Counted from the first letter of the stretch, positions 5,659 through 64,000 are shown. The stretch is DNA of 64,000 nt from a virus (IMGVR_UViG_3300034024_000020:51704-115703), one strand, 5' to 3'. Made by a program: numbers and translations. Notes: a model not told the origin generated them from the sequence alone.

Positions 5659-6398
5659 TGACACTTCCTAAGTGGACTGATGAGCGCACCGCTCAGCTTC
5701 GTGATCTCGTTGGCAGCGAGGAGCCCGTAACTAAGGCTACCGTAGACCGTGTAGCAGAGGAAATGGAGACTTCTAGCCGTTCCGTCGCTTCTAAGCTTCG
5801 TAAGCTTGGTGTCGAGGTAGAACTAGCATCGCAGGCGCCACGTGCGTTCAGCGACGAGCAGGCTGAAGAGCTAGCTCAGTTCGTCCGTGAAAATGAGGGT
5901 GAGCTTACTTATGCTCAGATCGCAGAGCAGTTTAACGGTGGTAGCTTCACCGCTAAGCAGATTCAGGGTAAGATCCTAAGCATGGAGCTTACTGATGCGG
6001 TTGCCCCAACTCCTAAGCCGGAGAGCACCAAGACCTACACCGATGAAGAGGAGGCTGAGGTCGTCCGTCTAATCGGTGAGAACGCTTTCGTCGAGGATAT
6101 CGCTAGTGCGCTAGATCGTACCGTTCCTTCTATCCGTGGTAAGGCTCTTAGCCTTCTTCGTGGTGGTCAGATCGCAGCGATGCCAAAGCAGCGTGACGTT
6201 AAGGGTCAGGCACCTGACCAGTTCGAGGAGCTCGGAGATGTTTCAACTCTTACCGTTGAGCAGATCGCAGAGCGTCTTGGAAAGACCGAGCGCGGTGTAA
6301 AGACCATGCTAACCCGTCGCGGTGTAACCGCAGCGGACTACGACGGGGCAGCTCGTCGTGAGAAGGCTCAGGCAGCAGCCGCAGCAACCACTGCGTAA
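5658..6398 (+). CDS. D5: T5 D5-like DNA-binding transcription regulator
   Basis: KWTDER..RSVASKLRK..QIQGKILSMELT..RGVKTMLTRRG repeated HTH units. Confidence 0.9.
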   Translation: MTLPKWTDERTAQLRDLVGSEEPVTKATVDRVAEEMETSSRSVASKLRKLGVEVELASQAPRAFSDEQAEELAQFVRENEGELTYAQIAEQFNGGSFTAKQIQGKILSMELTDAVAPTPKPESTKTYTDEEEAEVVRLIGENAFVEDIASALDRTVPSIRGKALSLLRGGQIAAMPKQRDVKGQAPDQFEELGDVSTLTVEQIAERLGKTERGVKTMLTRRGVTAADYDGAARREKAQAAAAATTA

Positions 6399-8221: not shown

Positions 8222-8999
8222 AGACTTAGTTACTTTATGCTTTAATCCAGATCATGATGATACTACTGCTGGTAGTTTCAGAATTGATAAAATCACAGGA
8301 GCAATGAACTGCTTCGCATGTGGATTTAAAGGCAGTGTATTTGCACACTTTGGCACGAAGGGCAACCCCCTTATGATAGCCAGGGAAAAGCTAAAAAGAA
8401 AGATTTCGGAGAAATTAGCAGAAAATGTCGGACTTGAAATCCCTAGAAACGCTGTTCCTTTCGCCAGAGAGTGGCGAGGAATATCGGCAGATACTTATAG
8501 AAAGTTCGAAGCTTTTGAGCATAATGACTCGGACTTTATTGGCCGCGTCGTATTTCCCATCCGTTCGTTCTCCGGAAGAATTGCGGGGTTTAACGCAAGA
8601 CATCTCACGCTTAATCAGCACCCTAAGTATCTTATATCCCCACCTAATGCGAAACTTCCGCTATTTCCAAAAGTAAAACCTGTAGAAGGTTCTATCGTGC
8701 TCGTAGAGGGCATGTTCGATATGCTCAACTTGCACGACAAAGGGCTAGACAACGCCGTATGTGCATTTGGAACTAGAAAAGTTACGAAAGACAAACTAAA
8801 CCTATTAAAGGTACAAGGCGTTAGCAAGTTAGACATTGCGTTTGACCCTGACGAAGCTGGTACCGAAGCAGCCGCCGAAGTAAAAGAACTAGCAGAACGT
8901 ATGGAAATGTATGCTAGAGTTGTTACTTTAAAAGACCAAGATCCAGGTGACCTGACAGCCTCACAAGTGCTCAGATTAAAGGAGAAGTTATATGGCTAA
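8166..8999 (+). CDS. DNA primase
   Basis: CFNPDH..CFAC zinc finger; TOPRIM VEGMFD and FDPDEAG. Confidence 0.93.
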   Translation: MQVEDLLSRHKISYTLSGKDLVTLCFNPDHDDTTAGSFRIDKITGAMNCFACGFKGSVFAHFGTKGNPLMIAREKLKRKISEKLAENVGLEIPRNAVPFAREWRGISADTYRKFEAFEHNDSDFIGRVVFPIRSFSGRIAGFNARHLTLNQHPKYLISPPNAKLPLFPKVKPVEGSIVLVEGMFDMLNLHDKGLDNAVCAFGTRKVTKDKLNLLKVQGVSKLDIAFDPDEAGTEAAAEVKELAERMEMYARVVTLKDQDPGDLTASQVLRLKEKLYG

Positions 9000-11349
9000 A
9001 GTAGCCTTAGTAGAGACCAAGCCGTCTCGTACTAACTTCAATGACGCGTTTGAAAGCGCATTTGAATTCGATAGATATCAATTATGCTCTAATCCGGCTA
9101 TTAAGAAGCCGCTTAAAAAAGATGTTGATATTGACATCAATGTAGATGACTATGACTGGATCATCCTAGTAGGTGCTGATTCTTTCAAATATTTCACGGG
9201 AAAGACATCTATATCTGATTTCTCTGGCAAGCCTGTCAACGAGAAATATATACCTATTATCAATCCTGCCATGCTAACTTTCAAGCCAGAAGCTGAGAGA
9301 TTATGGCAGGAATCCAAGACTTCCCTAATTAGATACATAACCGGTAATGCAAAGGTAGTAAGTTATAACAGTGACAAAATCTACGGTATCACTGAGGAGC
9401 AGCAAGCCCTTGAATATATTCAAGCTGCGATACTCGCGCCCTCAAAATATGTCGCCCTCGACTCCGAAGCTTCCGCTCTATATGCGCGCGACGGTCACGT
9501 TCTTGGGATTAGTCTTTGCTATGAGCGGGATCATGGCGTATACATTAGCGCCGACTGCATCACGCCAGAAGTAGAAGAGAAACTACAAGAGCTATTTAAC
9601 AAGAAGATTGTAATCTTCCACAATGCTAAATTCGATATCGGATTCTTCTGGTATCATTTTGGGTGGCAGTTCCCTAGATTTGAAGATACTATGCTTCTGC
9701 ATTATTGCATCGAAGAGAATCCAGGCAACCACGGATTGAAGCAGCTTGCTCTAAAGTACACAGTCTACGGGGACTACGAAGCTGGTTTAGAAGAGTTCAA
9801 GGCAGAATATTGCAAGAAGAATGGGGTTAAAAAGGATGACTTTACGTACGATCTTATTCCTTTTGATATCATGTTCCCTTATGCAGCAATCGACTCTATT
9901 GTCACGTTCCTGCTCTTCTTAAAGCTGAAAGCAGCTGTTACGAAGAATCCAAAACTACATTGGGTATATGAGAATATTCTAATTCCAGGTAGTGATCTTC
10001 TTACTGAAATTCAAGATAACGGAGTACCATTTGATCGTAATCGCCTAGAAAAGGCGTCGATTATGATGCAGACCGATATTGATAATGCTGTAGCTCAGTT
10101 GTATGAGCACCCAGTAATTCGTGAATTTGAAGAAGCTCAAGGAAAGACTTTCAACCCGGGTAGCACGCAACAGCTGCGTAAGTTGCTATTTGATTTCGTT
10201 GGATTAACTCCAACAGGTAAAAAGACAGGCACAGGAGCAGCGTCAACGGACGCGGAAGTGCTAGAGGAATTGAGTGAATATAGTGAAATTCCTAAACTCA
10301 TCCTTAATATCCGAAAAAAGTCAAAAATTAAGAATACGTACCTTGACAAAATCATACCTCAGCTTGACGCTGACGGTCGTCTCCGTACTGGTTTTAATCT
10401 TCATAGCACTACTAGCGGAAGGCTTTCATCCTCTGGCAAGCTCAACATGCAGCAGTTGCCAAGAGACAATCCTGCCGTAAAGGGTTGTATTAAAGCTCGT
10501 CCAGGATACAAGATTGTATCTATGGATTTGACCACCGCGGAGGTTTATGTAGCCGCGGTTCTCTCAGGCGATAAAAAGCTGCAAGAGGTTTTCAAGTCGG
10601 GACAGGATTTCCACTCTACTATTGCTAAAATGGTCTTTAAGCTAGATTGTAGGGTAGAGGATGTTAAGAAACTTTATCCTCATCTAAGACAAGGGGCTAA
10701 ATCTACTACCTTCGGTATTCTTTATCAGGCTGGAGCTATTACAGTAGCTAATCAGATTAGGAAAGAATCTGGTGTTTATTGTAGTGTGTCTCAAGCACAG
10801 AGATATATCGACGATTACTTCAAGGAATTCAAGCAGCTTCACAAGTGGATCGAAGCACAAAAGGACTTTATTGCAACCAACGGTTTCATTTATAGTCATT
10901 TTGGTAGAAAGCGCAGACTTCCAAATGTTAAATCATCTGATAAGGGTATTAAGGCTCACACCATTCGATCTGGTGTTAACTTCCTAGTTCAGTCTCCTGC
11001 ATCGGACATTAACTTGTTCGCAGCTATTGAAATGAGACACTTCATCAACAAGAATAAGATGAAAAGTCTCATATTCGCACTGGTTCACGACTCTATTCTA
11101 GCAGAGGTTCCGGAAGATGAAATTGATTTCTATACCGAAACTCTCCGAGGTTTCGTGCAGGCAGACCGCGGACTTTCAATCCCAGGTTATCCGATTGGAT
11201 GTGACTTCGAAGTGGGAGATGACTACAGCTTTAATGCCAAACATGATGATTATCCAAATGAAACCAAATATCAGGTCTACGAACGAGGATGGGATTCTAA
11301 GCTGCCACAGCTAATGGATAGTTTAGTAAAGCTATGCAAGACGAATTAA
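8992..11349 (+). CDS. pol: family A DNA polymerase with 3'-5' exonuclease (T5 type)
   Basis: Exo motifs DSE, HNAKFD, YAAID; motifs A DLTTAEV, B RQGAKSTTFGILY, C VHDS. Confidence 0.97.
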   Translation: MAKVALVETKPSRTNFNDAFESAFEFDRYQLCSNPAIKKPLKKDVDIDINVDDYDWIILVGADSFKYFTGKTSISDFSGKPVNEKYIPIINPAMLTFKPEAERLWQESKTSLIRYITGNAKVVSYNSDKIYGITEEQQALEYIQAAILAPSKYVALDSEASALYARDGHVLGISLCYERDHGVYISADCITPEVEEKLQELFNKKIVIFHNAKFDIGFFWYHFGWQFPRFEDTMLLHYCIEENPGNHGLKQLALKYTVYGDYEAGLEEFKAEYCKKNGVKKDDFTYDLIPFDIMFPYAAIDSIVTFLLFLKLKAAVTKNPKLHWVYENILIPGSDLLTEIQDNGVPFDRNRLEKASIMMQTDIDNAVAQLYEHPVIREFEEAQGKTFNPGSTQQLRKLLFDFVGLTPTGKKTGTGAASTDAEVLEELSEYSEIPKLILNIRKKSKIKNTYLDKIIPQLDADGRLRTGFNLHSTTSGRLSSSGKLNMQQLPRDNPAVKGCIKARPGYKIVSMDLTTAEVYVAAVLSGDKKLQEVFKSGQDFHSTIAKMVFKLDCRVEDVKKLYPHLRQGAKSTTFGILYQAGAITVANQIRKESGVYCSVSQAQRYIDDYFKEFKQLHKWIEAQKDFIATNGFIYSHFGRKRRLPNVKSSDKGIKAHTIRSGVNFLVQSPASDINLFAAIEMRHFINKNKMKSLIFALVHDSILAEVPEDEIDFYTETLRGFVQADRGLSIPGYPIGCDFEVGDDYSFNAKHDDYPNETKYQVYERGWDSKLPQLMDSLVKLCKTN

Positions 11350-13624: not shown

Positions 13625-14879
13625 CAGGATTTATCTTGACGTTACGCCTGATCTAGCAAAACTTTTGAAGGCTGAACTAACGTATAAGATACCTAATCCT
13701 GGTAACCCCGACGAACCTATTATAATGCGGACGTACGGCGTTATTAGTGATAACGTAATGTCCTTACCTATCGGAAGAACGGATTTAATTCCTGATGATT
13801 ACCGAATTGTTGACAAGCGAATCCTTGCTCCCGCAGATTTCCCCGACTTTGATGGCACTTTACGAGACTCGCAGCAAGAGATTTGGGACCACATCGAAGA
13901 TAATTGTATTATCAACGCCAAAGTATCGTGGGGAAAAACTTTTGCAGCTTTGGCTATCGCAGGAAAACTAGGGCAAAAGACGCTTATTATAACTCACACT
14001 GTTCCTCTTAGAAACCAATGGGCGAAACAAATTGAAAAAGTTTACGGAATCTCTCCAGGAGTTATTGGCTCGTCTCGTTTTAATGTGGATGGCCCTATTG
14101 TTGTTGGGAATGTACAGTCTCTTTATGGCTGTATGGATCGTGTGGGCAAGCTTTTCGGGACAATCATTCTTGACGAAATGCATCACGTATCTGCTCCAAC
14201 TTTCTCAAAAGTTGTCGACAGAAGTTATGCTCGCTATAAAATTGGACTCAGCGGCACTATCAGAAGAAAAGACGGAAAACATGTCGTTTTCACCGATTAT
14301 TTCGGAACCAAAATTTATCAACCCCCAACAGAGAACTCTATGAAACCAAAAGTACACGTTATTAATACAGGAATTAGTCTTCCTGACGGTCAATCCTTGG
14401 GCTGGGCAGCTAAGATTACCATGCTACAAGAATCGATCATATATCGTGAATTAGTACGAAATCTAGCACAAAGATACGCTATAGTAGGCCATAAGGTCCT
14501 AGTAGTATCTGACAGAGTAGAATTTCTACAGACTTGCGCTAAGGCTAACGGTGGTGCTTGCATTACTGGGAAAAATCCTGACGAAAGAGAAAGACTCTTT
14601 AAGGAAATTGAAGAAGGCAAATACAGTGAAATTTGGGCTACTCAGTCCATTTTCTCAGAAGGAATGTCTTATGATCCTCTAAGTTGTCTAATCCTAGGTA
14701 CACCTGTCAACAACGAGCCTCTTTTAGAACAGCTAATTGGCCGTATTCAAAGAATCGTTAAAGACAAAGTACAACCTATTGTAGTCGATCTAAGACTTCG
14801 TGGGAACACTGCCGAAAAGCAATTCCAAGCTAGACTAGGTCACTATATCCGTCAAGGATACGAAGTAGAGTACATATAA
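13605..14879 (+). CDS. D10: SF2 helicase (T5 D10, UvsW-like)
   Basis: WGKT, DEMHH, GLSGT, QLIGRIQR. Confidence 0.93.
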   Translation: MKAMLSNRIYLDVTPDLAKLLKAELTYKIPNPGNPDEPIIMRTYGVISDNVMSLPIGRTDLIPDDYRIVDKRILAPADFPDFDGTLRDSQQEIWDHIEDNCIINAKVSWGKTFAALAIAGKLGQKTLIITHTVPLRNQWAKQIEKVYGISPGVIGSSRFNVDGPIVVGNVQSLYGCMDRVGKLFGTIILDEMHHVSAPTFSKVVDRSYARYKIGLSGTIRRKDGKHVVFTDYFGTKIYQPPTENSMKPKVHVINTGISLPDGQSLGWAAKITMLQESIIYRELVRNLAQRYAIVGHKVLVVSDRVEFLQTCAKANGGACITGKNPDERERLFKEIEEGKYSEIWATQSIFSEGMSYDPLSCLILGTPVNNEPLLEQLIGRIQRIVKDKVQPIVVDLRLRGNTAEKQFQARLGHYIRQGYEVEYI

Positions 14880-31338: not shown

Positions 31339-33713
31339 GGTAGGTTTTCTCCAAAGGAAATATGTCTATAGTTGTATCCAGTCGCTAAACCAGTTCCAGA
31401 AACAGTACCAGAAAGTAGAGCTCCTCCATAAGCAATAGTTCCATCTGGCTTGTAAGCTGAATATAGAGGGGATGATTGTGAAGGATCTTTACCAACTGCG
31501 ACAATAGGAGTTGAGGCGTAACTAATAGATAGAAGACCAGCGTTATCAGTAGTTGAACTGATAGTGGTTTGAATAGTTGATGGGACCACACCACTATGTT
31601 CTACATAATTGAACGTAGTCATAGTCCACGTAGAGGCACCCTTAACCATTCTAAATCTAGTTATAGAAGGTACACCATCCACATAACTCAATGCAGGTGG
31701 TACACTAAATCTAAACCTAGTTTCTGTCTGGCCGTTAGCGTCTATAAAGCTCCACTTATCAACAATTTGTACGCCTGTGTTTAATACGGCACTATTAGCT
31801 GTATTAACTAGATTAACAGTGTCCCCTAATAAGAAGTTATCTGCGTTTTCTGAAACCTTAGGATCATGTGCATAGCTATAATCATAGTTATAGCAATCAA
31901 TAATCTTACAACGAAGAATGAACTCCAGCTCAGGAATGGTTGTCTCACCTTCCTTAATCTTATATTTAGCTACAATGTAAGCTGTGTCAAGCAGCCTATG
32001 ATTAGGACCCCAATATTCAGAGCTATCGCTGCCCATCCAGAAATCATTCTGGACCTTAAATCCGTTATTTTTAGCTATAGATACTAACTGGGAAGCCGCC
32101 TTTTGACCTTCTTTACCAGAAAAGAAGTCGATAGTCATTTCTTGCGGATCTTGCATGGAAATGCTTTCACCGTTAATAATACCTTTACCGATGCTACTGT
32201 AACTAGCATTCTCTATAGAAGGAGCTATATAAGGCTGATATTTGGTAAGACTATTTTTATTGAATACTAGAGAAAAGACTTCTTTAGCTGTTGGTGTATC
32301 GTAATAATCTACCGAAGCTGTAGGGATAGCGACAGATGTATTGCCCCCTAGAACGTCTCCTCTATCGGCTCTTCCTCGACAAACTACATCAATAGTATTG
32401 TCAGGAGTTTGTTTACTTCTAGCATCAAAATCTGTCTTATCATTGCAGATTAAGGATTTTCCATTGATGTACATATCATATATGCCACCAATTTCTCCCT
32501 CACAGAGTGCATAAGCAACGTAGACTTCGCTGCTGTCATTCTTCAAAGTATCGGCAAAAACAGGAATACCTACTGTTGTACGTACTCCATACATAACTGG
32601 AATAGATTTGGCGCTAAGCTGAAAATCTAAATCTGTATGTCTATCTTCTGGTTCAAGATACTTCTTAACCTTGACTTTTGCGCCGATACCAAAGAATCCC
32701 TTCTTTGCTTTGATTCGTTGCTTTTCAACTTGCACAACATATGTTGAAAGCAAGTTGATTGAAGTCTCTGAGTGAATAAAGCCTTTGTCATATGCGTAAA
32801 TAGGTTTAATAGCAGAAGCAGGCTGAGGGATGCCATTCTCATCTAGGGCTCTGTGGAAATCATCAGATGTGATTCTTCCTCGCACCTGTGAGAAATCACC
32901 CCAGTGACTAGTAAGACCCCAGGTAACAACGATACCGTTATCATCGTCCTCGAATCCTACATTGCTAATAATGCCCTTAAATAGGAGAATAGGTGCACCT
33001 ATTGTAAGTCCATCCTTTTGATAAACTCTGTAAATAAATACTTCTCGATTGATGAAGGAAGCATAATCATTCTCACTCTTATTCATGAGAATGGATTTAA
33101 CTTCTTCCGAAGCTAAACGGAATCCAATAGTACCAGAATTAATAGGTAGATCAACATCAATCTTTCTGATACGAATTGTATTATTCGCTCTGAAATTTAC
33201 GATATTAAAATCACCTGATCTGGAACCCGTAAAAGTGATCTTGTCACCTTCTCTAAAACCTAGAGCTACAGGATCGACATTTGAATCACTGATAGATATA
33301 TCATATTCTGTGGCTGATACAGCTACAATGTCCATAAGCTGAGGACCGATTTCAGCGCCCAGACCATTTCCATCTACCGTTATAGTAAAGTTACTGGCCT
33401 TAGCTTCGGTAGATTCAGATACGCCTGAAATCTTTAGAATTTTGTTAGCAAGATACTTCTGTGTACCATTAGCGGCCCCCTGCAAATTCTTGCTTCCATC
33501 GTCGTAATCTATATCTCTACTTGCGTCTGTTAGATACGTATATCTAACAGCGGAAGTAGAAACTTTACCAGAAACTTTATCTGGACGGGATGGACGCTCA
33601 AACTTAATAAGATGTGCAAACTCTAAAGGTTCGTTGGTGTCGCCTTCGAACCCTGGTGAGCCCCCCATAAGGAGACTTCTTAAATCTGAATGTACATATC
33701 TTTCTTGAGTCAT
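31335..33713 (-). CDS. baseplate hub (pb3-like), N-terminal half
   Basis: FINREVFIYR, SHWGDF, IPVMYG..G..VF..YALCEGEI; follows Dit. Confidence 0.8.
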   Translation of the reverse strand: MTQERYVHSDLRSLLMGGSPGFEGDTNEPLEFAHLIKFERPSRPDKVSGKVSTSAVRYTYLTDASRDIDYDDGSKNLQGAANGTQKYLANKILKISGVSESTEAKASNFTITVDGNGLGAEIGPQLMDIVAVSATEYDISISDSNVDPVALGFREGDKITFTGSRSGDFNIVNFRANNTIRIRKIDVDLPINSGTIGFRLASEEVKSILMNKSENDYASFINREVFIYRVYQKDGLTIGAPILLFKGIISNVGFEDDDNGIVVTWGLTSHWGDFSQVRGRITSDDFHRALDENGIPQPASAIKPIYAYDKGFIHSETSINLLSTYVVQVEKQRIKAKKGFFGIGAKVKVKKYLEPEDRHTDLDFQLSAKSIPVMYGVRTTVGIPVFADTLKNDSSEVYVAYALCEGEIGGIYDMYINGKSLICNDKTDFDARSKQTPDNTIDVVCRGRADRGDVLGGNTSVAIPTASVDYYDTPTAKEVFSLVFNKNSLTKYQPYIAPSIENASYSSIGKGIINGESISMQDPQEMTIDFFSGKEGQKAASQLVSIAKNNGFKVQNDFWMGSDSSEYWGPNHRLLDTAYIVAKYKIKEGETTIPELEFILRCKIIDCYNYDYSYAHDPKVSENADNFLLGDTVNLVNTANSAVLNTGVQIVDKWSFIDANGQTETRFRFSVPPALSYVDGVPSITRFRMVKGASTWTMTTFNYVEHSGVVPSTIQTTISSTTDNAGLLSISYASTPIVAVGKDPSQSSPLYSAYKPDGTIAYGGALLSGTVSGTGLATGYNYRHISFGENLP

Positions 33714-56734: not shown

Positions 56735-56842
56735 GGAGTAAATTATTTGGGGTAGTGGGGTGTTTGTGTAATTTGTTTGCGCCTTCTAGCTGTTTTTTGA
56801 CCTAATGTTGTACGTGAGGAGGGGAGGCCTCGGAGAGGCCAA

Positions 56843-56935
56843 AGTATAGTCTAATAACCGCCCCCTGTCAAGGATTATCTCACTAACATATGTTATGATC
56901 TTTTTTGTTGACGCTCCCTCAATAAAGACTAAGGT
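56843..56935. promoter_or_regulatory. divergent promoter pair A
   Basis: Minus TTGACA-17-TATACT; plus TTGACG-16-TAAGGT. Confidence 0.75.
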
Positions 56936-56990
56936 GATTGAACTACCCGGATGAGGCGGGCCGAAATTTCCAAGGTGCTAGGATTAAGAC

Positions 56991-57221
56991 ATGCGCGCTG
57001 CTACTGCCACCAATGTCTCCCCTCTTATTGTAATGGCAAAGACGGGAGGCTTCACGGCCGTCATCTCCTGCCGCTTTCGCTCGGCCCCTCGGGCCTATAG
57101 CGTTCCCGACATTCGGACGGCTCGCGCTATCGCGTCCTCCCTTATGTCTAGCGAAACGGGATACGTCTATAACGACGAAAGCCCGAACGCTATCGAAACC
57201 TATTATGGCGAGGCGAACTAA
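56991..57221 (+). CDS. hypothetical pre-early protein
   Basis: AGGA RBS, downstream of promoter. Confidence 0.55.
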   Translation: MRAATATNVSPLIVMAKTGGFTAVISCRFRSAPRAYSVPDIRTARAIASSLMSSETGYVYNDESPNAIETYYGEAN

Positions 57222-57417
57222 GATGGAAGCGCGCTTCTCAGACTTCCCCGCCGTCATCGCCTTCATTACCCTTGTCGTTTGCATGGGGGCGTTGCTAATG
57301 GCAATGGCGGGCTTCGGCAATTCGGAGGATATGCGAAACGTGTTCCTCTATAGCGCGGGGGCTTGCATCCCCTCCGCTTTGATCGCTTCCGCAATTTCTT
57401 TTAGCAGGAGGGGTTGA
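57205..57417 (+). CDS. two-TM small membrane protein
   Basis: Hydrophobic helices; start may be MEARF. Confidence 0.6.
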   Translation: MARRTKMEARFSDFPAVIAFITLVVCMGALLMAMAGFGNSEDMRNVFLYSAGACIPSALIASAISFSRRG

Positions 57418-57582
57418 CAGATGCACCCGCTAATGGCACTGTTCCTGCTCGGGATCGCGGTCCTATGGTTTGTTTGCAGGGGAAACTAAAATGGCACAAT
57501 TTGCAGGATGGGCTTGCGGGGTTACTTTTTTTTGTGGTAATCCCCTATATCAGCTTCAAGGCAGAACAGGGAAGGCTCCGTC

Positions 57583-57732
57583 ATGGGGAACAAATCAGCG
57601 AGGAAATTTGAGACGCCGCCTGACATAAGGCGCGCTTCAAACGAGCGGGAATGGCAACGTCCCCGTGATGGCATCGACATAGACCAATGGTTAGGCTCAG
57701 GCATTACCATTGGTAGCAGGAGGGGCATATGA
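57583..57732 (+). CDS. small hypothetical protein (49 aa)
   Basis: MGNKSARKFE..; ATGA coupling to the next ORF. Confidence 0.45.
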   Translation: MGNKSARKFETPPDIRRASNEREWQRPRDGIDIDQWLGSGITIGSRRGI

Positions 57733-57881
57733 GGCTATCGAGCGGAGAGCATATCATAGCACTTGGGAAGGTATATGCTGAGGCATACGCTTCCCATATC
57801 AGAGCCGGTGTTGCTCATGCTGCTGCCCTGTCTATGGCTAAGCAGGCTATGATCCACTTTCATTCCGGGTTAAGCGAGTAG
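57729..57881 (+). CDS. small hypothetical protein (50 aa)
   Basis: AGGAGG RBS; MRLSSGEHII.. Confidence 0.6.
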   Translation: MRLSSGEHIIALGKVYAEAYASHIRAGVAHAAALSMAKQAMIHFHSGLSE

Positions 57882-57890
57882 ACGAAGGCT

Positions 57891-57930
57891 CCCGATGATA
57901 TAACGTATCATCGGGGGTCGGACTCCGACC
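57891..57930. repeat. tandem inverted repeats
   Basis: CCCGATGATA/TATCATCGGG followed by GGTCGGACTCCGACC. Confidence 0.8.
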
Positions 57931-57959
57931 GCGCCGACGCAGCACAGGGCACACCTACA

Positions 57960-58055
57960 TATAACATGGCCACATATGCGCCGTCAAGGACTATTTCAGC
58001 AACCTATGTTAAGAACTTTTTTATTGACTGCTCCACTCTAGGCGCGCATAAGGGG
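57960..58055. promoter_or_regulatory. divergent promoter pair B (paralog of A)
   Basis: 46-nt GTCAA...TTGAC core is 38/46 identical to pair A. Confidence 0.7.
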
Positions 58056-58074
58056 TGGGTAAGGAGATAGGGCC

Positions 58075-58278
58075 ATGTTGCAGGGTGAAATTCGGTACTT
58101 CTACAAAGGCGCTTATCGGCAGGGCTGGATCATTTGCCGCCAAGGTTGCGGCTATAACATCGACGTGAACGGCCTCGGGATGCAGGAATGGTTCGTCGCG
58201 GGGCAGGTTCATTCCGTTGTTGACTTCCTTTCGACGGACTGCGATAACGAGGAAACTTTCGAGAGGATCGAGGCGTGA
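58075..58278 (+). CDS. hypothetical protein
   Basis: AAGGAG RBS. Confidence 0.6.
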   Translation: MLQGEIRYFYKGAYRQGWIICRQGCGYNIDVNGLGMQEWFVAGQVHSVVDFLSTDCDNEETFERIEA

Positions 58279-58433
58279 ACGGTTTCAGCGACCCGGATTA
58301 TAGCGACGGCTTCGATGACGGTTGGAATGACCGGGATGACGGTCGGACTTATCGGATCAAGAATGGCGCTTCGGACAATTATAAACGCGGTTACATGGCG
58401 GGATTTACCGCCGCCGCCGAGAGGGACCAATAA
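58275..58433 (+). CDS. small acidic protein with Y..GF..G motifs (52 aa, not in ORF track)
   Basis: GTGA coupling, GAGG RBS; YSDGFDDGW..YKRGYMAGF. Confidence 0.6.
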   Translation: MNGFSDPDYSDGFDDGWNDRDDGRTYRIKNGASDNYKRGYMAGFTAAAERDQ

Positions 58434-58434
58434 A

Positions 58435-58845
58435 ATGAGCGCTCAGGATGGAATGATTGCAATAGGCGGCCTAGCCGGTTTCATTTGCACGGGAACCGGC
58501 TTTGTAGTCATCGTCAAGGCGATGATACCGAAGCGTAAAAAGCCGGAACTTTCCACTTTCTGGGTTCAGGCTTTGGACCTTTTGACCTTGGATAAGGATA
58601 ATTGGGTTATCCCCAAGGATGACGTCAAAATGCTTTTCCACCCGCCTACGGGGCTTAGGCTCTGTTATGAGGGTTCGTATTATCGCCAAGAATGCAAGGC
58701 GATTGTTCCCGGCGGTGGCGAGGTGGAAATACCTCACGAGCACAGACAGGATTATATTAAGCTGTGCGAAAAACTACAGCAAATAATCGCCGTCCGGAAA
58801 TTGACCACGGAGGCGAAGCCTTACGAGGTGGAATTTAGTTCTTGA
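58435..58845 (+). CDS. membrane-anchored hypothetical protein
   Basis: Start MSAQD; N-terminal TM helix. Confidence 0.6.
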   Translation: MSAQDGMIAIGGLAGFICTGTGFVVIVKAMIPKRKKPELSTFWVQALDLLTLDKDNWVIPKDDVKMLFHPPTGLRLCYEGSYYRQECKAIVPGGGEVEIPHEHRQDYIKLCEKLQQIIAVRKLTTEAKPYEVEFSS

Positions 58846-58870
58846 CTTCGCTACTAAACCCGGCTATAAT
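58842..58870 (+). promoter_or_regulatory. sigma70-type promoter
   Basis: AATTTAGTTC-TTGACT-17-TATAAT. Confidence 0.85.
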
Positions 58871-58895
58871 GGTCGGACCAACAAAGGGAGATTTT

Positions 58896-59147
58896 ATGCA
58901 ACGGCTTCAGCTTATCGACGCGGACGGAACTTCGAATATCCTCGAAGTTCAGGACGACCGGGCCATCAACATCGTCGTGGACGATGGCACGATCTACACT
59001 TTTGCAAGCGTCACCACGGTCGACGGCGAAAAGACGGCGGTTTACCGGCGCGGAACAACCCTCGACTTGATCGACGGCTTCCTGTTCACGCCCGGCTCCA
59101 ACGACACAGCGACGGAAGTCGACTGGCACTTTCTCGGGGAGGACTAA
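58896..59147 (+). CDS. hypothetical acidic protein
   Basis: GGGAG RBS; start MQRLQ. Confidence 0.65.
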   Translation: MQRLQLIDADGTSNILEVQDDRAINIVVDDGTIYTFASVTTVDGEKTAVYRRGTTLDLIDGFLFTPGSNDTATEVDWHFLGED

Positions 59148-59149
59148 AA

Positions 59150-59293
59150 ATGGGCGCGTGGGAAAAGGGGCTTGAAGCCCACCTGAAAGGGAAGCGTAAA
59201 AATCCCTTTTCCCACGGCTCTGCCGACTGGCACGAATGGAGGCGAGGCTGGAAAGACAGGGACAGGATTGCTACGTTCCGCTTTTGTTCCTGA
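59150..59293 (+). CDS. Rmf/CrpP-fold miniprotein (47 aa, not in ORF track)
   Basis: AWEKGLEAHLKG..NPF..W.EWRRGW; GGAGG RBS. Confidence 0.65.
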   Translation: MGAWEKGLEAHLKGKRKNPFSHGSADWHEWRRGWKDRDRIATFRFCS

Positions 59294-59406
59294 GCGGGCG
59301 GAAGTCCGCCCCCGCCGCAGCGAGCCGCTACTCAGAGCATAGCAAATTTCAGGAACCGCTGTCAAGCAATCTTTTCTCTTGACTAAAACTATTTTGACCC
59401 TAGAAG
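59275..59406. promoter_or_regulatory. repeat cassette 1: LexA-type box + palindrome + divergent promoters
   Basis: GTTCCGCTTTTGTTC, GGGCGGAAGTCCGCCC, TGTCAA...TTGACT. Confidence 0.8.
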
Positions 59407-59412
59407 GGTAAT

Positions 59413-59646
59413 ATGACCGACGCAGAAAAGATCGCCGCTTTCCTCGCCTCCAAAGGCGCGACGAAGCTTCCCACGGGCGCTAGCAACAATGTCACTAGCG
59501 GGCAATGGTATAAAGCCAGCCAAGGGGTTGTTGACTTGCGCTCGAAATTGGCGCAAGGTCCCTTACCGGAGCCGAAGAAAAAGGCTTCGAAACCTGCCCG
59601 CAAGGGTGAGACTTTCTTTCATGACGCCTATAGGAGGGCAAACTAA
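59413..59646 (+). CDS. basic hypothetical protein, probably leaderless
   Basis: IAAFLASKG.TK; ATG 6 nt after the -10 box. Confidence 0.65.
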   Translation: MTDAEKIAAFLASKGATKLPTGASNNVTSGQWYKASQGVVDLRSKLAQGPLPEPKKKASKPARKGETFFHDAYRRAN

Positions 59647-59985
59647 ATGTTCGATGATTATTTCCCCTATATCGTAGCGGCCGCCCTTTTCATCATGGCG
59701 CTTGCGCTCTGGTACGGCTGGCGCGCTTGCAATCGCGTTCCGCGTGATCCGACGGTTTCGGAAAACGACGAGATTTACGCCGATGGCTTCGACGCGGGCT
59801 ATCAGGACGGCCATTCGGACGGCTATTTCGACGAGCCGCGCCGCCCCGATTATGCGGTCGGGGACGACGACAAGCCGACGCGCTATGCTCTCGGCTATCG
59901 CGAAGGCTATGCGGAAGGCTATGAGGCTGGACAAGCCGAAGGCGACCGCGACGAGGAAGCGGGAGGGCTCGATGAAAGAGTGTGA
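59647..59985 (+). CDS. membrane-anchored protein with GY..GY repeats
   Basis: TM helix; YADGFDAGYQDG and GYREGYAEGYEAG. Confidence 0.7.
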   Translation: MFDDYFPYIVAAALFIMALALWYGWRACNRVPRDPTVSENDEIYADGFDAGYQDGHSDGYFDEPRRPDYAVGDDDKPTRYALGYREGYAEGYEAGQAEGDRDEEAGGLDERV

Positions 59986-60082
59986 GCCGAGCGACGATTT
60001 CTTCTATGAACCCACCTGTCATTGGTGTGGCGAGCCAGAAGACGATTGTGCTTGCGACAATGAGGAAGAGCCATTCCTCTAG
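59972..60082 (+). CDS. acidic Cys-rich miniprotein (36 aa)
   Basis: GGGAGG RBS; CHWCGEPEDDCAC. Confidence 0.55.
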   Translation: MKECEPSDDFFYEPTCHWCGEPEDDCACDNEEEPFL

Positions 60083-60093
60083 GAAACCCGGCC

Positions 60094-60234
60094 GTTCTGG
60101 ATTTGTTCCAGGGCGGTCGGAATTCCGACCCCGAATTTTTGGCCCCACTCCTCTAAGAACATAATAGCAGATGCCACCACCCTGTCAAGCAATCTTTTCT
60201 CTTGCGTTGCAAATAATTTTGCCCTACCTAGAAC
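60094..60234. promoter_or_regulatory. repeat cassette 2
   Basis: GTTCTGGATTTGTTC, GGTCGGAATTCCGACC, minus TTGACA-16-TATTAT, plus TTGCAA-16-TAGAAC. Confidence 0.82.
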
Positions 60235-60254
60235 GGGAAGCTAGAGGAGATTTT

Positions 60255-60791
60255 ATGACCTACGTTGTTTTCGATCTCGACGGAACCGTGATCGACAGTT
60301 CCCACCGCCACCTTGCGAAGCCTGACGGCTCCGTAGACTTGGAACACTGGTTCGACAACGCCACGCCGGAAAAAATCGCCCTCGACGGATTGCTTCCGCT
60401 TGCGGACTCCATGCGCGCAATCCACCGGGCCGGTCATCGGGTCATTATCTGCACGTCCCGCTCGTTTCAGCCCGCCGACCTGAAATTTTTGGAGGATAAT
60501 GACCTCCCCTATCACCACCTTTTCAGCCGTCCCGGCTTTTTCGTCGGGCGCGACGATCCGCGCTATGCCGATAGCTATTTCGGCTTCATCGGGGATGCGC
60601 GTTCCGACGAACTAATCAAGGCGGAACAGCTTGCCGAATTTTTCCGTTCGGAAGGCTTCGAAAGCATTGCGGATGCTCCTGCTATCATGTATGATGACAA
60701 TCTGAAGGTCATTCGCAAGATGAACGAAATCGGCCTTCCCTGTCTCAATGCGGTCAACGTGAACGCGCAAATTTTAAGGAACGCGGCATAA
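60255..60791 (+). CDS. HAD-family phosphatase (PNKP-like; possible analogue of T5 Dmp)
   Basis: FDLDGT, ICTSR, K, MYDD. Confidence 0.88.
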   Translation: MTYVVFDLDGTVIDSSHRHLAKPDGSVDLEHWFDNATPEKIALDGLLPLADSMRAIHRAGHRVIICTSRSFQPADLKFLEDNDLPYHHLFSRPGFFVGRDDPRYADSYFGFIGDARSDELIKAEQLAEFFRSEGFESIADAPAIMYDDNLKVIRKMNEIGLPCLNAVNVNAQILRNAA

Positions 60792-60910
60792 TGGCGAATA
60801 TCGACAAAATCCCGAACCCGGAGCATACGGCTCTAGCAGTCGCGGCAATTCGTCTTCGAAAGGTTCGGGAGGAAGCGGATTTCATCGACAGACAATTCGA
60901 AAGGAAATAG
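60791..60910 (+). CDS. small hypothetical protein (39 aa)
   Basis: TAATG coupling; AGGA RBS. Confidence 0.5.
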   Translation: MANIDKIPNPEHTALAVAAIRLRKVREEADFIDRQFERK

Positions 60911-60911
60911 A

Positions 60912-61184
60912 ATGAGAAAAATCAGATACAAACTCGATATCGGCTATGCCGGTTGTGGCGACGAGGGAACGGAAACGGTCCCCGACGATATGACCGATGC
61001 CGATATTGACGCTATGGTTCAGGACATGGCGCAAGAACACGCCGCAAGCTGGGAAGGCGATAATCGTCTCTGCTGGGATGAGGATATGTCCGAGGAGGAC
61101 TATCAAGACGCCACGGAACATTTTTACGAAGGCGTTTGCGGCTCGTGGTCTTTTGTCCTTGACGGCGACGAAGACGAGGACTAG
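60912..61184 (+). CDS. highly acidic protein
   Basis: AAGGA RBS; D/E-dominated sequence. Confidence 0.7.
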   Translation: MRKIRYKLDIGYAGCGDEGTETVPDDMTDADIDAMVQDMAQEHAASWEGDNRLCWDEDMSEEDYQDATEHFYEGVCGSWSFVLDGDEDED

Positions 61185-61196
61185 GATAAACCGACC

Positions 61197-61331
61197 GTTC
61201 TGGATTTGTTCCCGGGCGGTCGGAATTCCGACCGCGTTTTCTCAAAACGCACCCCTGCTAAATATAACAGGTGAAAAATCTTTGTCAAGCCCATCTTTTC
61301 TGTTGCAAACATTTTTTACCTAGCCTAGAAC
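61197..61331. promoter_or_regulatory. repeat cassette 3
   Basis: GTTCTGGATTTGTTC, 20-bp palindrome GCGGTCGGAATTCCGACCGC, divergent promoters. Confidence 0.82.
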
Positions 61332-61386
61332 AATCTCACGGCGGCGGGACGGTCCCAAAGCTGACAACCGACAAGGATGATTTCAG

Positions 61387-61638
61387 ATGCGACGTTCAAT
61401 TTTGGGGCTGTGTGCCCTTGCCCTTCCGCTCGCAGCCCTCGGCGCGTGCAACATTCCCGATCCGCGACCGGCGCAGCAAGCCGAATGCGACAATCTCGGC
61501 GGCACCTACCGGGCCGATCCGGAGGGCGCTCGCGAGGACGAGTGCACGGTGACGGCGCGCAATGGCGTTCCCTTCACCATCGAATACGACGACGTTCATA
61601 CCGCTTCGGGCGCTCCGGCGACCGGCGGCGACGACTAA
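61387..61638 (+). CDS. lipoprotein (superinfection-exclusion candidate)
   Basis: MRR + hydrophobic core + LGA-C lipobox. Confidence 0.8.
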   Translation: MRRSILGLCALALPLAALGACNIPDPRPAQQAECDNLGGTYRADPEGAREDECTVTARNGVPFTIEYDDVHTASGAPATGGDD

Positions 61639-61639
61639 G

Positions 61640-61955
61640 ATTTTAGGGCCGACCGTTCCCAAGTCGGCTAAAACGCGAGTGATCGCTACCGGCCCTAAAT
61701 CGCTTCCGATGCTATCTCAATTTAGCAAGTCGAGACTAAAATAACCTGCCTAGCAAGCGGCTCTCGCAGGGGACCTCGAAAAATGTCCTGCCGCAAAGGG
61801 ACAAGGGAGACTTGGAAACTCCCCGGAAGCAAAATGAAAAGGTGACGGTACAAGCCCGTTAATCCGCGACCGTGCGGAGCCACCTTTTCCCTATTGACTG
61901 TCAAGCCGATAATGGGTAGCCTAGGGAGGCAGTCACGGTTCCGGTCGTCCTAGGT
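61640..61955 (+). ncRNA. candidate structured non-coding RNA
   Basis: No credible ORF; multiple perfect helices, a 3-way junction and a GNRA loop. Confidence 0.5.
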
Positions 61956-61961
61956 TGGGGC

Positions 61962-62078
61962 GGCCGGAATTCCGGCCCCGCCCGCAACGGTCGGTTTCCT
62001 CTAAGACCATAATAGCAGGTTCGGCAAGCCTGTCAAGCAAACATTTCGCTTGCAAGCAAATTATTTTTCCTCTAACAA
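61962..62078. promoter_or_regulatory. repeat cassette 4 (no intact LexA-type box)
   Basis: GGCCGGAATTCCGGCC, minus TTGACA-16-TATTAT, plus TTGCAA. Confidence 0.78.
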
Positions 62079-62128
62079 GGTTCTACCGGGATGGCCCGGC
62101 GACCGTAAACGAAAGGATGAAGGTCAAG

Positions 62129-62284
62129 ATGGCGATTAACAAAAGACGAGCGGAGCGCATGGCGCGACGCAGCGACGCGGAATTGGTCCGCTTCGTTCAT
62201 GCCAAAACGCTTTCCAGCGCGGCGGCCTATTACGCACTCGAAAAGCGGGGCAAGCTGTCCCTGCTCGCGAAGGAGGTGCGCTAG
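62129..62284 (+). CDS. small basic protein (51 aa)
   Basis: AAGGA RBS; start MAINK. Confidence 0.6.
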   Translation: MAINKRRAERMARRSDAELVRFVHAKTLSSAAAYYALEKRGKLSLLAKEVR

Positions 62285-62460
62285 TGAACGCTCGCGCCAC
62301 CCGTCGCCGCGAAGGGGCGCTTGCTCGCCTTCGCACTCAGCTTCAATCGGGCACTCGCCCCTCTCAGGTTCCCGGCCTGAAAGGTTGCCGGGTAGACTTG
62401 ACGGAAGCCGATGTTTCCCGTATCAAGGCGGAAATCGCCACCCTCGAACGGAGGATTTAA
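62284..62460 (+). CDS. small basic protein (58 aa, not in ORF track)
   Basis: AGGAGG RBS; GTG overlapping TAG; MNARATRRREG.. Confidence 0.65.
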   Translation: MNARATRRREGALARLRTQLQSGTRPSQVPGLKGCRVDLTEADVSRIKAEIATLERRI

Positions 62461-62461
62461 T

Positions 62462-62596
62462 ATGCGTATCGTAGTCGGACGCGGTAACAACCGCCACGTT
62501 TTCGACGTTCCTCCCCGCAAGGATAAGGTGGCGCTGGAACGCGTTGCCGAGGACGTCAAGGCTTTTCTTTTTCGCCCCGCCCTGCTAGGGCGCTAG
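62462..62596 (+). CDS. small hypothetical protein (44 aa)
   Basis: GGAGG RBS; start MRIVV. Confidence 0.6.
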   Translation: MRIVVGRGNNRHVFDVPPRKDKVALERVAEDVKAFLFRPALLGR

Positions 62597-62682
62597 GGTT
62601 CGGCGGACGGAAAATCCTCTTTCCCAATTCCCCTTTAACCTTAGTAAGAACGACGGGGATACGCTGGAATTGCAGGATTTTG

Positions 62683-62719
62683 GAGCGGGTGGGGCTGGCA
62701 AGTCTCACCCGCTCTTTTT
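62683..62719 (+). terminator. intrinsic terminator
   Basis: GAGCGGGTG/CACCCGCTC stem followed by TTTTT. Confidence 0.8.
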
Positions 62720-62732
62720 ATTAGGAGGATTT

Positions 62733-62903
62733 ATGGAACCGAAATTCAAATATGCCTATAAGACGCAGGGTTCCGAAGGCTGGGAACAAATTGCGTTTGA
62801 AATGAGCGATGGAAGCACGATTTTCATTGACTTATGGCAGGGACGCTTTAGAGATAGCTTTTGGATGGACACAGAAGGAAAAATCCATGCTTCGACAAGT
62901 TGA
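62733..62903 (+). CDS. hypothetical protein
   Basis: AGGAGG RBS; start MEPKF. Confidence 0.65.
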   Translation: MEPKFKYAYKTQGSEGWEQIAFEMSDGSTIFIDLWQGRFRDSFWMDTEGKIHASTS

Positions 62904-63177
62904 AATTTCAGACCGGACCCGCAAGGCGGGCGAAGTCGGGGGTTATCTAGGGATGGTCCTAATTCATGGCGCTACGCTTCCGGTTACGGTCGGAAATATC
63001 ATGGGCTGGACTGACAAACTCCCGCCGCTTTCGATGGTCCTGCTAGTCTGGCTTGGCCTCATTCTCTTTTTCATCCGGGCGCTTGTGCGCTTCGATTGGC
63101 TTTATCTGATTAGCAACGGAATTGGTTTCACGTTCAATTCCATCCTGCTAATCATTATCGTGCTTTACGGGAGTTAA
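62887..63177 (+). CDS. 3-TM SemiSWEET/PQ-loop-like membrane protein
   Basis: Three TM helices; ATLP in TM1 and LISN in TM3. Confidence 0.6.
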   Translation: MLRQVEISDRTRKAGEVGGYLGMVLIHGATLPVTVGNIMGWTDKLPPLSMVLLVWLGLILFFIRALVRFDWLYLISNGIGFTFNSILLIIIVLYGS

Positions 63178-63181
63178 GGCG

Positions 63182-63424
63182 ATGGAGGATGACCGCTATG
63201 AAATCACCTATGAAGGCGGCTTTATGGCCGCCTTCAATAATAACGGCGAAACCCGTTATTATATCGAAAAGAAACTAAACGAGGGCGGTTTCTTTCCCGA
63301 AGATTTTGCCGTAACGAAAAACGGCGACCCTCTCACCGTAGAAGCGCGCTACAGCGTAAGCATCGGGGGGGCAGTAAATGAGAACGCTTTATCACGCTTA
63401 CACGGAGGAACATGGCGAATGTGA
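63182..63424 (+). CDS. hypothetical protein
   Basis: GGAG RBS. Confidence 0.55.
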   Translation: MEDDRYEITYEGGFMAAFNNNGETRYYIEKKLNEGGFFPEDFAVTKNGDPLTVEARYSVSIGGAVNENALSRLHGGTWRM

Positions 63425-63596
63425 AGCCATGTTCTCCGAAACCGGCGAATTGCTAGGCATTTGGTCCTGCAATGACGCCACTTGGCGGAACGAATACTTT
63501 TCAGACTTTATGGAGGCTCTAGGCTTCAAGGTCGAAAACGCTTCGCCGGAATTGGTTGACAAACTCATTGCAACCGCTAAAGAATACTGGGGCTAG
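63378..63596 (+). CDS. hypothetical acidic protein
   Basis: G-rich RBS; within operon. Confidence 0.6.
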   Translation: MRTLYHAYTEEHGECEAMFSETGELLGIWSCNDATWRNEYFSDFMEALGFKVENASPELVDKLIATAKEYWG

Positions 63597-63610
63597 GAAA
63601 GGAACCCAAA

Positions 63611-63832
63611 ATGCAACTTGCTAATTTCACCCCGGAAGAGCAGAAGCTGGCACTTTCGGAAATTCGCCGGAACCTCGACGAAGCCGAACGGATTTTCGAG
63701 GGGAACGATTATCACGCCACGGATGCAGAGCGGATGACGCGGCTTCACTTTCACTTGAACGAGGGGAGCCGTCAGCTTTCGCGGATCAAGGTCGCGGCTC
63801 GCCGTCAGCTTTGGTACGCGCAGCAACGCTAA
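63611..63832 (+). CDS. hypothetical helical protein
   Basis: AAAGGA RBS. Confidence 0.6.
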   Translation: MQLANFTPEEQKLALSEIRRNLDEAERIFEGNDYHATDAERMTRLHFHLNEGSRQLSRIKVAARRQLWYAQQR

Positions 63833-63843
63833 GGTTTCTGGCC

Positions 63844-63990
63844 GTTCCGGTTTTGTTCCGGGGCGGCCGGAAGTCCGGCCCCGCCGCCGCAGGCCGGGCC
63901 TCCCTAGAACTTAAATAGCACCACCTAATAACGCTGTCAAGCGAAAAGATTGCTTGACATAACTTTTTTCACCTAAGCAGAATATAGCAC
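63844..63990. promoter_or_regulatory. repeat cassette 5
   Basis: GTTCCGGTTTTGTTC, GGCCGGAAGTCCGGCC, TGTCAA...TTGACA. Confidence 0.8.
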
Positions 63991-64000
63991 CTAGCGCCCG

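Follow-up and report, generated by a model that had tools for sequence, protein, structure and literature searches.

Candidate alphaproteobacterial-type LexA operators in intergenic cassettes of the pre-early block of a T5-like phage

Temperate phages such as CTXphi and coliphage 186 (tum) make use of host LexA, and Arbiol et al. reportedly described in 2010 promoter-plus-stem-loop cassettes (PeSL) between small early genes of T4-type phages. For GIL01, the use of host LexA together with the co-repressor gp7 is reported (PMC4551915), and CtrA boxes occur in phages of Alphaproteobacteria (PMC9437464). The left terminal repeat of T5 contains the untranslated elements IRC-spacer-IRD and IRD'-spacer-IRC', an injection stop signal and host DnaA boxes; a comparison of 25 T5-like injection-stop regions in the same work makes no mention of LexA-type boxes (Davison, bioRxiv 10.1101/866236). 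Here, we analysed a 64,000-nt stretch of virus DNA (the window, IMGVR_UViG_3300034024_000020:51704-115703), which represents genome positions 51704-115703 of a single 115,703-bp virus record. Towards its end, the direct repeat GTTC-N7-GTTC is followed several times by a GC-rich palindrome. This direct repeat is the SOS box of Caulobacter and related bacteria (PMC9578287; 10.1101/2025.01.26.634973), and both papers trace the alphaproteobacterial LexA operator to da Rocha et al. 2008. An alpha-type LexA box in a T5-like phage is new here, and the comparative evidence given below favours host LexA as its ligand.

LexA-type boxes in a high-GC block

The composite of box, gap and palindrome was found in four copies at the positions given in a preliminary description of this DNA. 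All boxes lie on the plus strand, at 59275-59289 (16.5 bits with the LexA matrix described below; overlapping the last codons of the open reading frame (ORF) 59150-59293), 60094-60108 (13.2 bits; 11 nt past the stop codon 60080-60082), 61197-61211 (16.7 bits; 12 nt past the stop codon 61182-61184), and 63844-63858 (14.9 bits; 11 nt past the stop codon 63830-63832; equivalent to genome 17-31). A gap of exactly 6 nt separates the box in four of four composites from the 16-mer GGNCGGAAKTCCGNCC, which starts at 59296, 60115, 61218, and 63865 and recurs as a palindrome-only copy at 61962 (0.25 copies expected with ≤2 mismatches); the 15-mer GGTCGGACTCCGACC lies at 57916-57930. As described before, the palindrome arms co-vary at one position, with GGGC/GCCC once, GGTC/GACC twice and GGCC/GGCC twice. 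The pattern GTTC-N7-GTTC gave five matches in the window versus 1.67 expected; exact copies number four in the window and one, a duplicate, at the start of the contig, with three more that overlap in an array at the inner block edge. The duplicate results from a 173-bp overlap of the contig ends, and the composite at 63844 is therefore the same copy as that at genome 17-53. Between the two 173-bp end copies, the sole difference is at the centre of the palindrome, where the dinucleotide AG at 63872-63873 is replaced by its reverse complement, CT, at genome 45-46. The assembly breaks at this flipped dinucleotide; either both orientations are present in the population or the two copies of a terminal repeat differ.

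The likeness of the box to genuine operators was evaluated with a matrix built from sites in the lexA upstream regions of 34 alphaproteobacterial GTDB genomes. GTTC-N7-GTTC was present ≤200 nt upstream of lexA in 32 of these 34 genomes, with the consensus TGTTC-TAGTTTG-GTTC(T/C). The unpublished genome G049 came up in the class sample but contributed no locus. When both strands of the whole 115.7-kb phage genome were scanned, the nine best matches were all inside one high-GC block, four in the array (22.6, 20.6, 16.0, and 13.6 bits) and five in the intergenic cassettes (16.7, 16.5, 14.9 twice, and 13.2 bits). The range of 13.2-22.6 bits compares with 11.6-28.1 bits for the training sites (median 25.4), and for most boxes the spacer alone outscored all but 2-9% of random spacers. 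The resemblance to alphaproteobacterial operators comprises the half-sites, the 7-nt spacer, its T-rich 3' half and the flanking bases. By this matrix the box is a good candidate for an alphaproteobacterial LexA operator, as the preliminary description had proposed. An extended form of the box, GTTCnCGTTTTGTTCC (GTTC-N4-(A/T)TTGTTC), was also searched for in bacterial genomes; among the 80 matches listed, 12 were alphaproteobacterial. In Phreatobacter, one of the bacterial matches precedes the SOS mutagenesis cassette (an imuA-like gene with imuB); another match lies before the replicative dnaE, and the others had no clear SOS assignment. We regard the box as a candidate host-type LexA operator. 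In the literature no link of T5-like pre-early DNA with LexA was found, older subscription papers lying outside the search.

The T5-like nature of the DNA and the pre-early character of the region, both claimed at the outset, were supported. The family-A DNA polymerase (PolA) is 45-47% identical to its Demerecviridae counterparts, and the plus-strand ORF 60255-60791 within the block matches the T5-type deoxynucleoside-5'-monophosphatase Dmp, the product of a hallmark pre-early gene (dmp); the closest Dmp homologues are 88% and 73% identical. The block extends over 9.5-10 kb from approximately 56,760 in the window through the contig junction to genome ~2,440-2,880, with a G+C content of 50-58% versus 41-46% in the remaining genome. 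Its window part (56760-64000, continuing into genome 1-2440/2880) is presumed to be terminal-repeat or first-step-transfer DNA. The block is flanked by minus-strand structural genes on one side and plus-strand small early genes on the other, i.e. it sits at a late/early boundary, and its last 1.4 kb are untranslated and rich in repeats. For comparison, the terminal repeats of T5 and phi3 measure 10,219 bp and 7,769 bp. The block is probably a collapsed long terminal repeat of the T5 type, with pre-early DNA that would be injected first. Neither a lexA homologue nor lysogeny genes were seen in the phage genome, a megablast search of the region versus GenBank phages gave no match, the protein atlas assigned nothing more specific than 'Viruses', and a cultured close relative was not found. 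The G+C content of the block exceeds that of the remaining genome by 8-14 points; its genes would be expressed before any phage tRNA, if the tRNA genes indeed lie outside the block, and the composition may therefore track host codon usage.

A second compartment-specific property was the scarcity of GANTC, the CcrM/HinfI-type site. The block contains two GANTC sites versus 24.5 (Markov) to 38.9 (composition) expected, corresponding to an observed/expected ratio of 0.05, which makes it by far the most depleted short palindrome there; outside the block the ratio was 0.79. This looks like restriction-site avoidance limited to first-injected DNA; its confinement to one compartment is in keeping with DNA that arrives in the cell ahead of any protective functions. 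The avoidance is not general among the relatives, so that it cannot mark the host for the whole clade. Of the two GANTC sites left in the block, one forms the centre of the 15-mer palindrome at 57916. From the box type, the CTA-type -10 elements, the GANTC avoidance, and the absence of gamma-type boxes we infer an alphaproteobacterial host.

Conservation in relatives and a gamma-type counterpart

A Dmp profile search yielded 80 viral loci. Where Dmp identity reached 33% or more (24 loci), 14 loci had the extended box in their non-coding pre-early DNA; it was not found in any of the 56 loci with a more distant Dmp. In an alignment of 15 boxes (A4) the GTTC words and TTTGTTC were invariant, and the flanks could not be aligned. 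At a threshold of ≥13 bits the LexA matrix gave 22 matches in 246 kb of Dmp-flanking loci versus 4.1 in shuffles. Arrays of GTTC words that keep the N7 spacing were found in this phage and in locus L031, where compressed words still retain their N7 partners. The box adjoins or overlaps a promoter in three relatives: it starts 4 nt after the -10 element in L030 and lies just downstream of the -35 element in L032 and L041. Often a hairpin of non-conserved sequence follows the box within 0-6 nt or encloses it. Of the conservation expected in related phages, the motif itself was thus recovered; the spacing was not, since the gap to unrelated hairpins is 0-4 nt in the relatives and 1 nt in an inverted copy of the palindrome at genome 2325-2340, outside the window. 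The exact composite gave no match in viral contigs, and metagenome contigs gave only five chance matches in high-GC coding DNA.

The IMG/VR contig of relative G001 (98,999 bp; Dmp 50% identical) has cassettes built on the same plan, in which each gene junction carries a perfect hairpin of different sequence, then a leftward promoter TTGACA-17-TAAAAT, and then a rightward promoter; ten copies of the leftward promoter match at 10-11/12. Several of these cassettes contain between their divergent promoters a perfect 16-bp AT palindrome, ATTACAAATTTGTAAT (L019:8040-8062, 8582-8600, 9845-9862, and 10472-10490), which is operator-like and absent from the phage analysed here.

The T5-like phages of Gammaproteobacteria offered a further comparison. 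The gamma-type pattern CTGTAT-N4-ATACAG was scanned on the whole records of T5, the Vibrio phages phi3, VCPH, and 70E37-3, the Aeromonas phages TS3 and AhSzq-1, and the Enterobacter phage KKP_3711. All seven genomes contain it at one to three distinct sites each, and every site is located in a terminal repeat or no more than ~7 kb from dmp; a reversed control pattern gave no match in the scanned records. The near-consensus sites are located at 6213-6228 and 9411-9426 in T5 (NC_005859), at 7229 in KP280063, at 5108 and 9030 in OP820700, at 117340, 117462, and 119954 in AP014889, at 108639 in MG676224, at 102982, 106079, and 106756 in OZ196862, and at 32705 and 33176 in PP579741. In T5, the 20-mer TACTGTATAAATATACAGTA at 9409-9428 is one base off the Escherichia coli SOS-box consensus TACTG(TA)5CAGTA, as tabulated in PMC9578287; it lies inside the annotated injection stop signal and adjoins DnaA-type boxes. 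The same 16-mer core occurs at 6213, between divergent pre-early operons. Conversely, the gamma-type box was not found in the phage studied here or its relatives, and the exact alpha-type box was not found in the repeats of T5, phi3, and TS3. The box type in first-injected DNA thus changes with the host class, from direct repeat to palindrome, and its confinement stays constant, which is the pattern expected from selection for binding of the own host's LexA. This clade-specific operator type in the same compartment is the strongest argument for host LexA as the selected ligand and for an alphaproteobacterial host.

Cassette anatomy and possible roles of the box

Alignment of six intergenic regions (A1) showed that the composite forms just one end of a larger repeated unit, an intergenic cassette. 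The order of elements is stop codon, CCGNCC-like arm, box, NGGGC, palindrome, ~35 nt, ATAGCA, ~12 nt, CTGTCAAGC-N9-GCTTGAC, T-rich tract, CTAnnn, ribosome site, and next gene. Eight cassettes were identified in the block, including copies at 56,830 and genome 1,575; four carry the box and one (61962) a decayed box. On the minus strand, ATAGCA...TGTCAA reads as the leftward promoter TTGACA-N16-18-TATTAT, which matches the consensus at 10-12 of 12 positions at 56871, 59365, 60188, 61288, and 62036; in total, 15 promoter-like sites were counted versus 4.6 ± 2.0 in shuffles. The individual leftward promoters are at 56843-56871 (first cassette, 11/12, adjoining the hairpin GGCCTCGGAGAGGCC and lacking a box), 59336-59365 (sigma-70-like, TTGACA-18-TATGCT, 10/12, reading into hairpin and box), 60161-60188 (TTGACA-16-TATTAT, 11/12), 61261-61288 (TTGACA-16-TATATT, 11/12), 62009-62036 (TTGACA-16-TATTAT, 11/12), and, by eye from alignment A1, 63913-63940 in the last cassette (TTGACA-16-CTATTT). 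A consensus scan placed the rightward, plus-strand promoter of the last cassette at 63954-63983 (TTGACA-18-CAGAAT); those of the other cassettes were recognized by eye as CTTGAC-N16/17-CTAnnn. Two back-to-back -35 elements form the inverted repeat GTCAAG-N11-CTTGAC at 59361-59383, and likewise at 60184-60204, 62032-62052, and 63936-63959. In the last of these the 9-11 nt spacer is reverse-complemented, a second instance of a flipped centre in a palindromic element. Within the window cassettes a leftward transcript would reach the box ~40-60 nt after its start, and the box precedes the rightward -35 element by ~85-90 nt; it overlaps no promoter, so that classical promoter occlusion is not applicable to them, although it would be to L030, L032, and L041.

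The palindromes are at 59296-59311 (GGGCGGAAGTCCGCCC; pattern match and consensus fold), 60115-60130 (pattern match and fold; followed by a T run and terminator-like on the plus strand), 61218-61233 (pattern match and fold; followed by a T run, with a stem that reaches 61216-61235), and 63865-63880, where the centre AG is replaced by CT in the other contig-end copy. The palindrome-only copy (61962-61977) retains a decayed box remnant at ~61944-61961 in alignment A1, and upstream of the 15-mer (57916-57930) the AT-rich hairpin CCCGATGATATAACGTATCATCGGG (57891-57915) takes the place of the box. GC hairpins with T runs at 60115-60130 and 61216-61235, and by eye at genome 1575-1595, score as terminators; the copies at 59296, 61962, 63865, and 57916 do not. 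The distance between the conserved arms is 9, 10, or 15 nt, and the centre is flipped in some copies. A hairpin is a better reading of the palindrome than the second-protein operator that had been envisaged: unrelated hairpins replace it in the relatives, its centre varies, and its left arm can also pair upstream. The hairpin, offered earlier as the alternative, is favoured by the consensus fold, in which only pairing is kept at the variable position.

Upstream pairing involves a third arm just before the box in three of the four composites, namely CCGGCC (60088-60093), CCGACC (61191-61196, by folding) and CTGGCC (63838-63843, by folding), all on the plus strand. Together with the first GTTC and variable spacer bases, this arm can pair with the post-box bases and the left palindrome arm; in the copy at 60094 the resulting 14-bp stem joins 60088-60101 with 60107-60120. 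The alternative stem had 85.7% of its cells paired, versus 30-55% when slid, and two pairs were changed on both sides. It is suggestive only, as the four copies are paralogous, two of them near-identical, and 31-42 of 500 shuffles reached the observed values. The stem contains two G-U pairs and would therefore work only in plus-strand RNA; in three copies a stop codon lies 5-6 nt before the third arm, so that the choice between the hairpins could depend on a ribosome terminating there. Duplication of one cassette together with the RNA stem can explain why the gap is fixed at 6 nt in this phage, without a second protein. Between the lipoprotein-like ORF 61387-61638 and the cassette at 61962, ~310 nt (61,640-61,955) hold no credible ORF, and a search of the region, including this segment, gave no Rfam family.

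At the inner block edge (genome 2264-2440) a rightward promoter is followed by the inverted palindrome copy (2325-2340) and, after 1 nt, by an 11-bp phased array of GAAC-like words (2342-2427; words at 2342, 2353, 2364, 2376, 2386, 2397, 2408, 2413, and 2424), which a leftward promoter faces from the opposite side. This boundary shares with L030 a TTGACG promoter, an AT-rich palindrome of the type CATGATAT...ATATCATG, the box, and a GC hairpin. A recurrent neighbour of the box, the array or the GC hairpin, here as well as in distant relatives, is an AT-rich palindrome of the form GATGATATAAC(A/G)TATCATC, located at 57891-57915 of the window, genome 2431-2450, L030 ~13,840-13,865, and L031 ~5,790-5,815. 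A 22-nt unit, AAAATAGTTGTTGACGTACTAC, occurs twice in tandem at genome 2465-2530 (L001) and once or twice in L030 at ~13,900-13,990; it holds the TTGACG -35 element of a promoter reading into the LexA-type box or array.

From these data we consider it somewhat more likely than not, on sequence comparison, that the cassettes of this divergent T5-like phage combine a host-type LexA operator with a hairpin, LexA acting as a damage-sensitive roadblock or insulator in an inferred alphaproteobacterial host. Host LexA would bind the block once inside the cell and sit ~40-60 nt downstream of each leftward, antisense start, where it would limit antisense transcription out of each junction. At the inner edge, a phased multi-dimer LexA array between the convergent promoters would act on convergent transcription across that edge. 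Cleavage or titration of LexA would release antisense and boundary transcription, and pre-early shut-off or passage across the block boundary would be tied to the SOS state of the host. The palindrome would serve as a terminator-like or 3'-end mRNA hairpin, or alternatively pair with the arm upstream of the box. Breakdown of host DNA is a hallmark of T5-type pre-early infection; a link of LexA to this breakdown, to pre-early shut-off or to second-step transfer is speculation. In a wider form, LexA would be the missing host factor of the two-step infection of T5-type phages, each lineage keeping operators of its own host's LexA type; LexA on phased arrays at the inner edge would hold back transcription or the passage of DNA, and RecA-dependent cleavage, after host-DNA breakdown by pre-early proteins, would time pre-early shut-off and/or second-step transfer. 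We regard this wider form as rather unlikely.

Several findings weigh against the roadblock reading. Four of the eight cassettes lack a box, and in the window the boxes overlap neither promoter, an unusual arrangement for a LexA-repressed unit. Conservation of the spacer (nCGTTTT) across the relatives exceeds what LexA alone should require, and the box orientation follows local transcription in every case seen, which would also fit an RNA element. The exact box is missing from the cassettes of G001, although the contig of this relative stops inside the block. With 240 aa for the largest block ORF, no gene of the size of A1 or A2 is present in the block. The ten block ORFs scanned, the largest included, gave no match to A1, A2 or a clear DNA-binding protein, with no direct T5 A1/A2 query made, and no informative family, a gp7-type LexA partner not being specifically searched. 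The host assignment draws only on box type, CTA-type -10 elements and GANTC avoidance. Finally, T5 is not known to depend on recA or LexA cleavage, and a role of LexA may therefore be modulatory rather than essential.

The box might instead belong to a pure RNA element, a translation-sensitive attenuator at the 3' end of pre-early operons, in which the first arm and the box pair with the second arm, or the second arm pairs with the third as a terminator-like hairpin; its likeness to LexA operators would then be coincidental. The minimum-energy fold, in which the left arm of the palindrome is bound by the upstream arm plus the box in three of four copies, speaks for such an element, as do the compensated pairs of the 14-bp stem, the strand-specific G-U pairs, the nearby stop codons, the GC-rich inverted repeats that often enclose the box in relatives and the constant orientation with local transcription. 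We nevertheless hold it to be improbable: the shuffling statistics of four paralogous copies are weak, and the 11-bp phased arrays here and in L031, the invariant GTTC words in the differing structural contexts of the relatives, and the gamma-type SOS boxes in the same compartment are left unexplained.

Similarly doubtful is that the 11-bp direct repeats are bound by a protein other than LexA, either a phage pre-early DNA-binding protein or a host winged-helix response regulator, that organizes first-injected DNA, e.g. as an injection stop or anchor. Winged-helix response regulators typically read direct repeats at 10-11 bp spacing. The repeat unit GAACAAAACnn exceeds a LexA half-site, the spacer T-tract is invariant in the 15 aligned boxes, phased arrays mark the block edge, and a conserved 122-aa pre-early protein is available as a candidate. 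This protein, common to the phage (L001:1069-1434/1437) and G001 (L019:9963-10281), is a candidate phage DNA-binding protein with a weak match to the phage transcription-regulator family phrog_323 (E = 0.005). Its reading by eye as GcrA-like had no Pfam support. Against another protein, half-site and spacing are exactly those of alphaproteobacterial LexA, the Phreatobacter cassette of imuA-like gene and imuB is preceded by the extended box, the 122-aa protein is present in G001 where the exact box is not, and the gamma-type parallel points specifically to LexA.

A composite operator, with LexA on the box and a second sequence-specific protein on the palindrome in a register set by the 6-nt gap, would agree with the exactness of this gap in four copies, with the T5 LexA-type box a few nucleotides from DnaA boxes, and with the pairing of LexA and a phage co-repressor in GIL01 (PMC4551915). 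It is very unlikely, as the palindrome centre varies in length and is flipped between copies, the gap shrinks to 1 nt in the inverted copy, the relatives have unrelated hairpins or none next to the box, and searches of viral and metagenome collections did not recover the composite. That the box has no function of its own, carried along in four recent duplicates of one cassette (67-85% identical over 54 nt, with the box lost at 61962), is hardly credible, since it is kept in distant relatives with unalignable flanks, is five-fold over shuffles and has been amplified into arrays.

Comparison with known systems

The pause of T5-like phages after ~8% of the DNA has been injected and the pre-early shut-off have been open problems since the 1960s, and only DnaA boxes are known to have been proposed as host-factor sites. 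Our comparisons suggest that a part played by host LexA in the early programme of T5-like phages may have been overlooked, and that virulent phages, not only temperate ones, may read the SOS repressor; the T5-E. coli model offers a direct test.

In common with the left repeat of T5, non-coding repeats, palindromes, and host-factor sites are confined to the block with dmp, here presumed to be injected first, a copy within the block is matched by an inverted copy at the inner edge, and direct-repeat arrays lie near that edge; the T5 repeat also has near-consensus LexA-type boxes. Unlike T5, the block contains no DnaA boxes (TTWTNCACA) and has the direct-repeat alpha box instead of the gamma palindrome. 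Several cassettes between successive genes hold the boxes, in place of two large inverted repeats; no gene of A1 or A2 size was seen in the block, and the terminal repeat is here only presumed. From the SOS boxes of Alphaproteobacteria these candidate operators differ by their presence in a virulent-type phage, their off-promoter position in cassettes and their multimerization in 11-bp arrays.

GIL01, CTXphi, and 186 likewise carry LexA operators on phage DNA, which there couple phage transcription to SOS; their sites control the lysogeny-to-lysis switch at promoters, whereas the boxes described here are in the presumed first-injected DNA of a T5-like phage in which no lysogeny genes were seen. 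CtrA boxes are a further case of a host global-regulator site of the form 4 nt-N7-4 nt co-opted by phages, although for another regulator, and their motif TTAA-N7-TTAA is absent from the block. The PeSL cassettes, compared by description only, share with those of the block a repeated intergenic stem-loop and an early promoter flanking small, fast-evolving early ORFs; here, unlike in PeSL, the promoters are divergent and a LexA-type box is attached.

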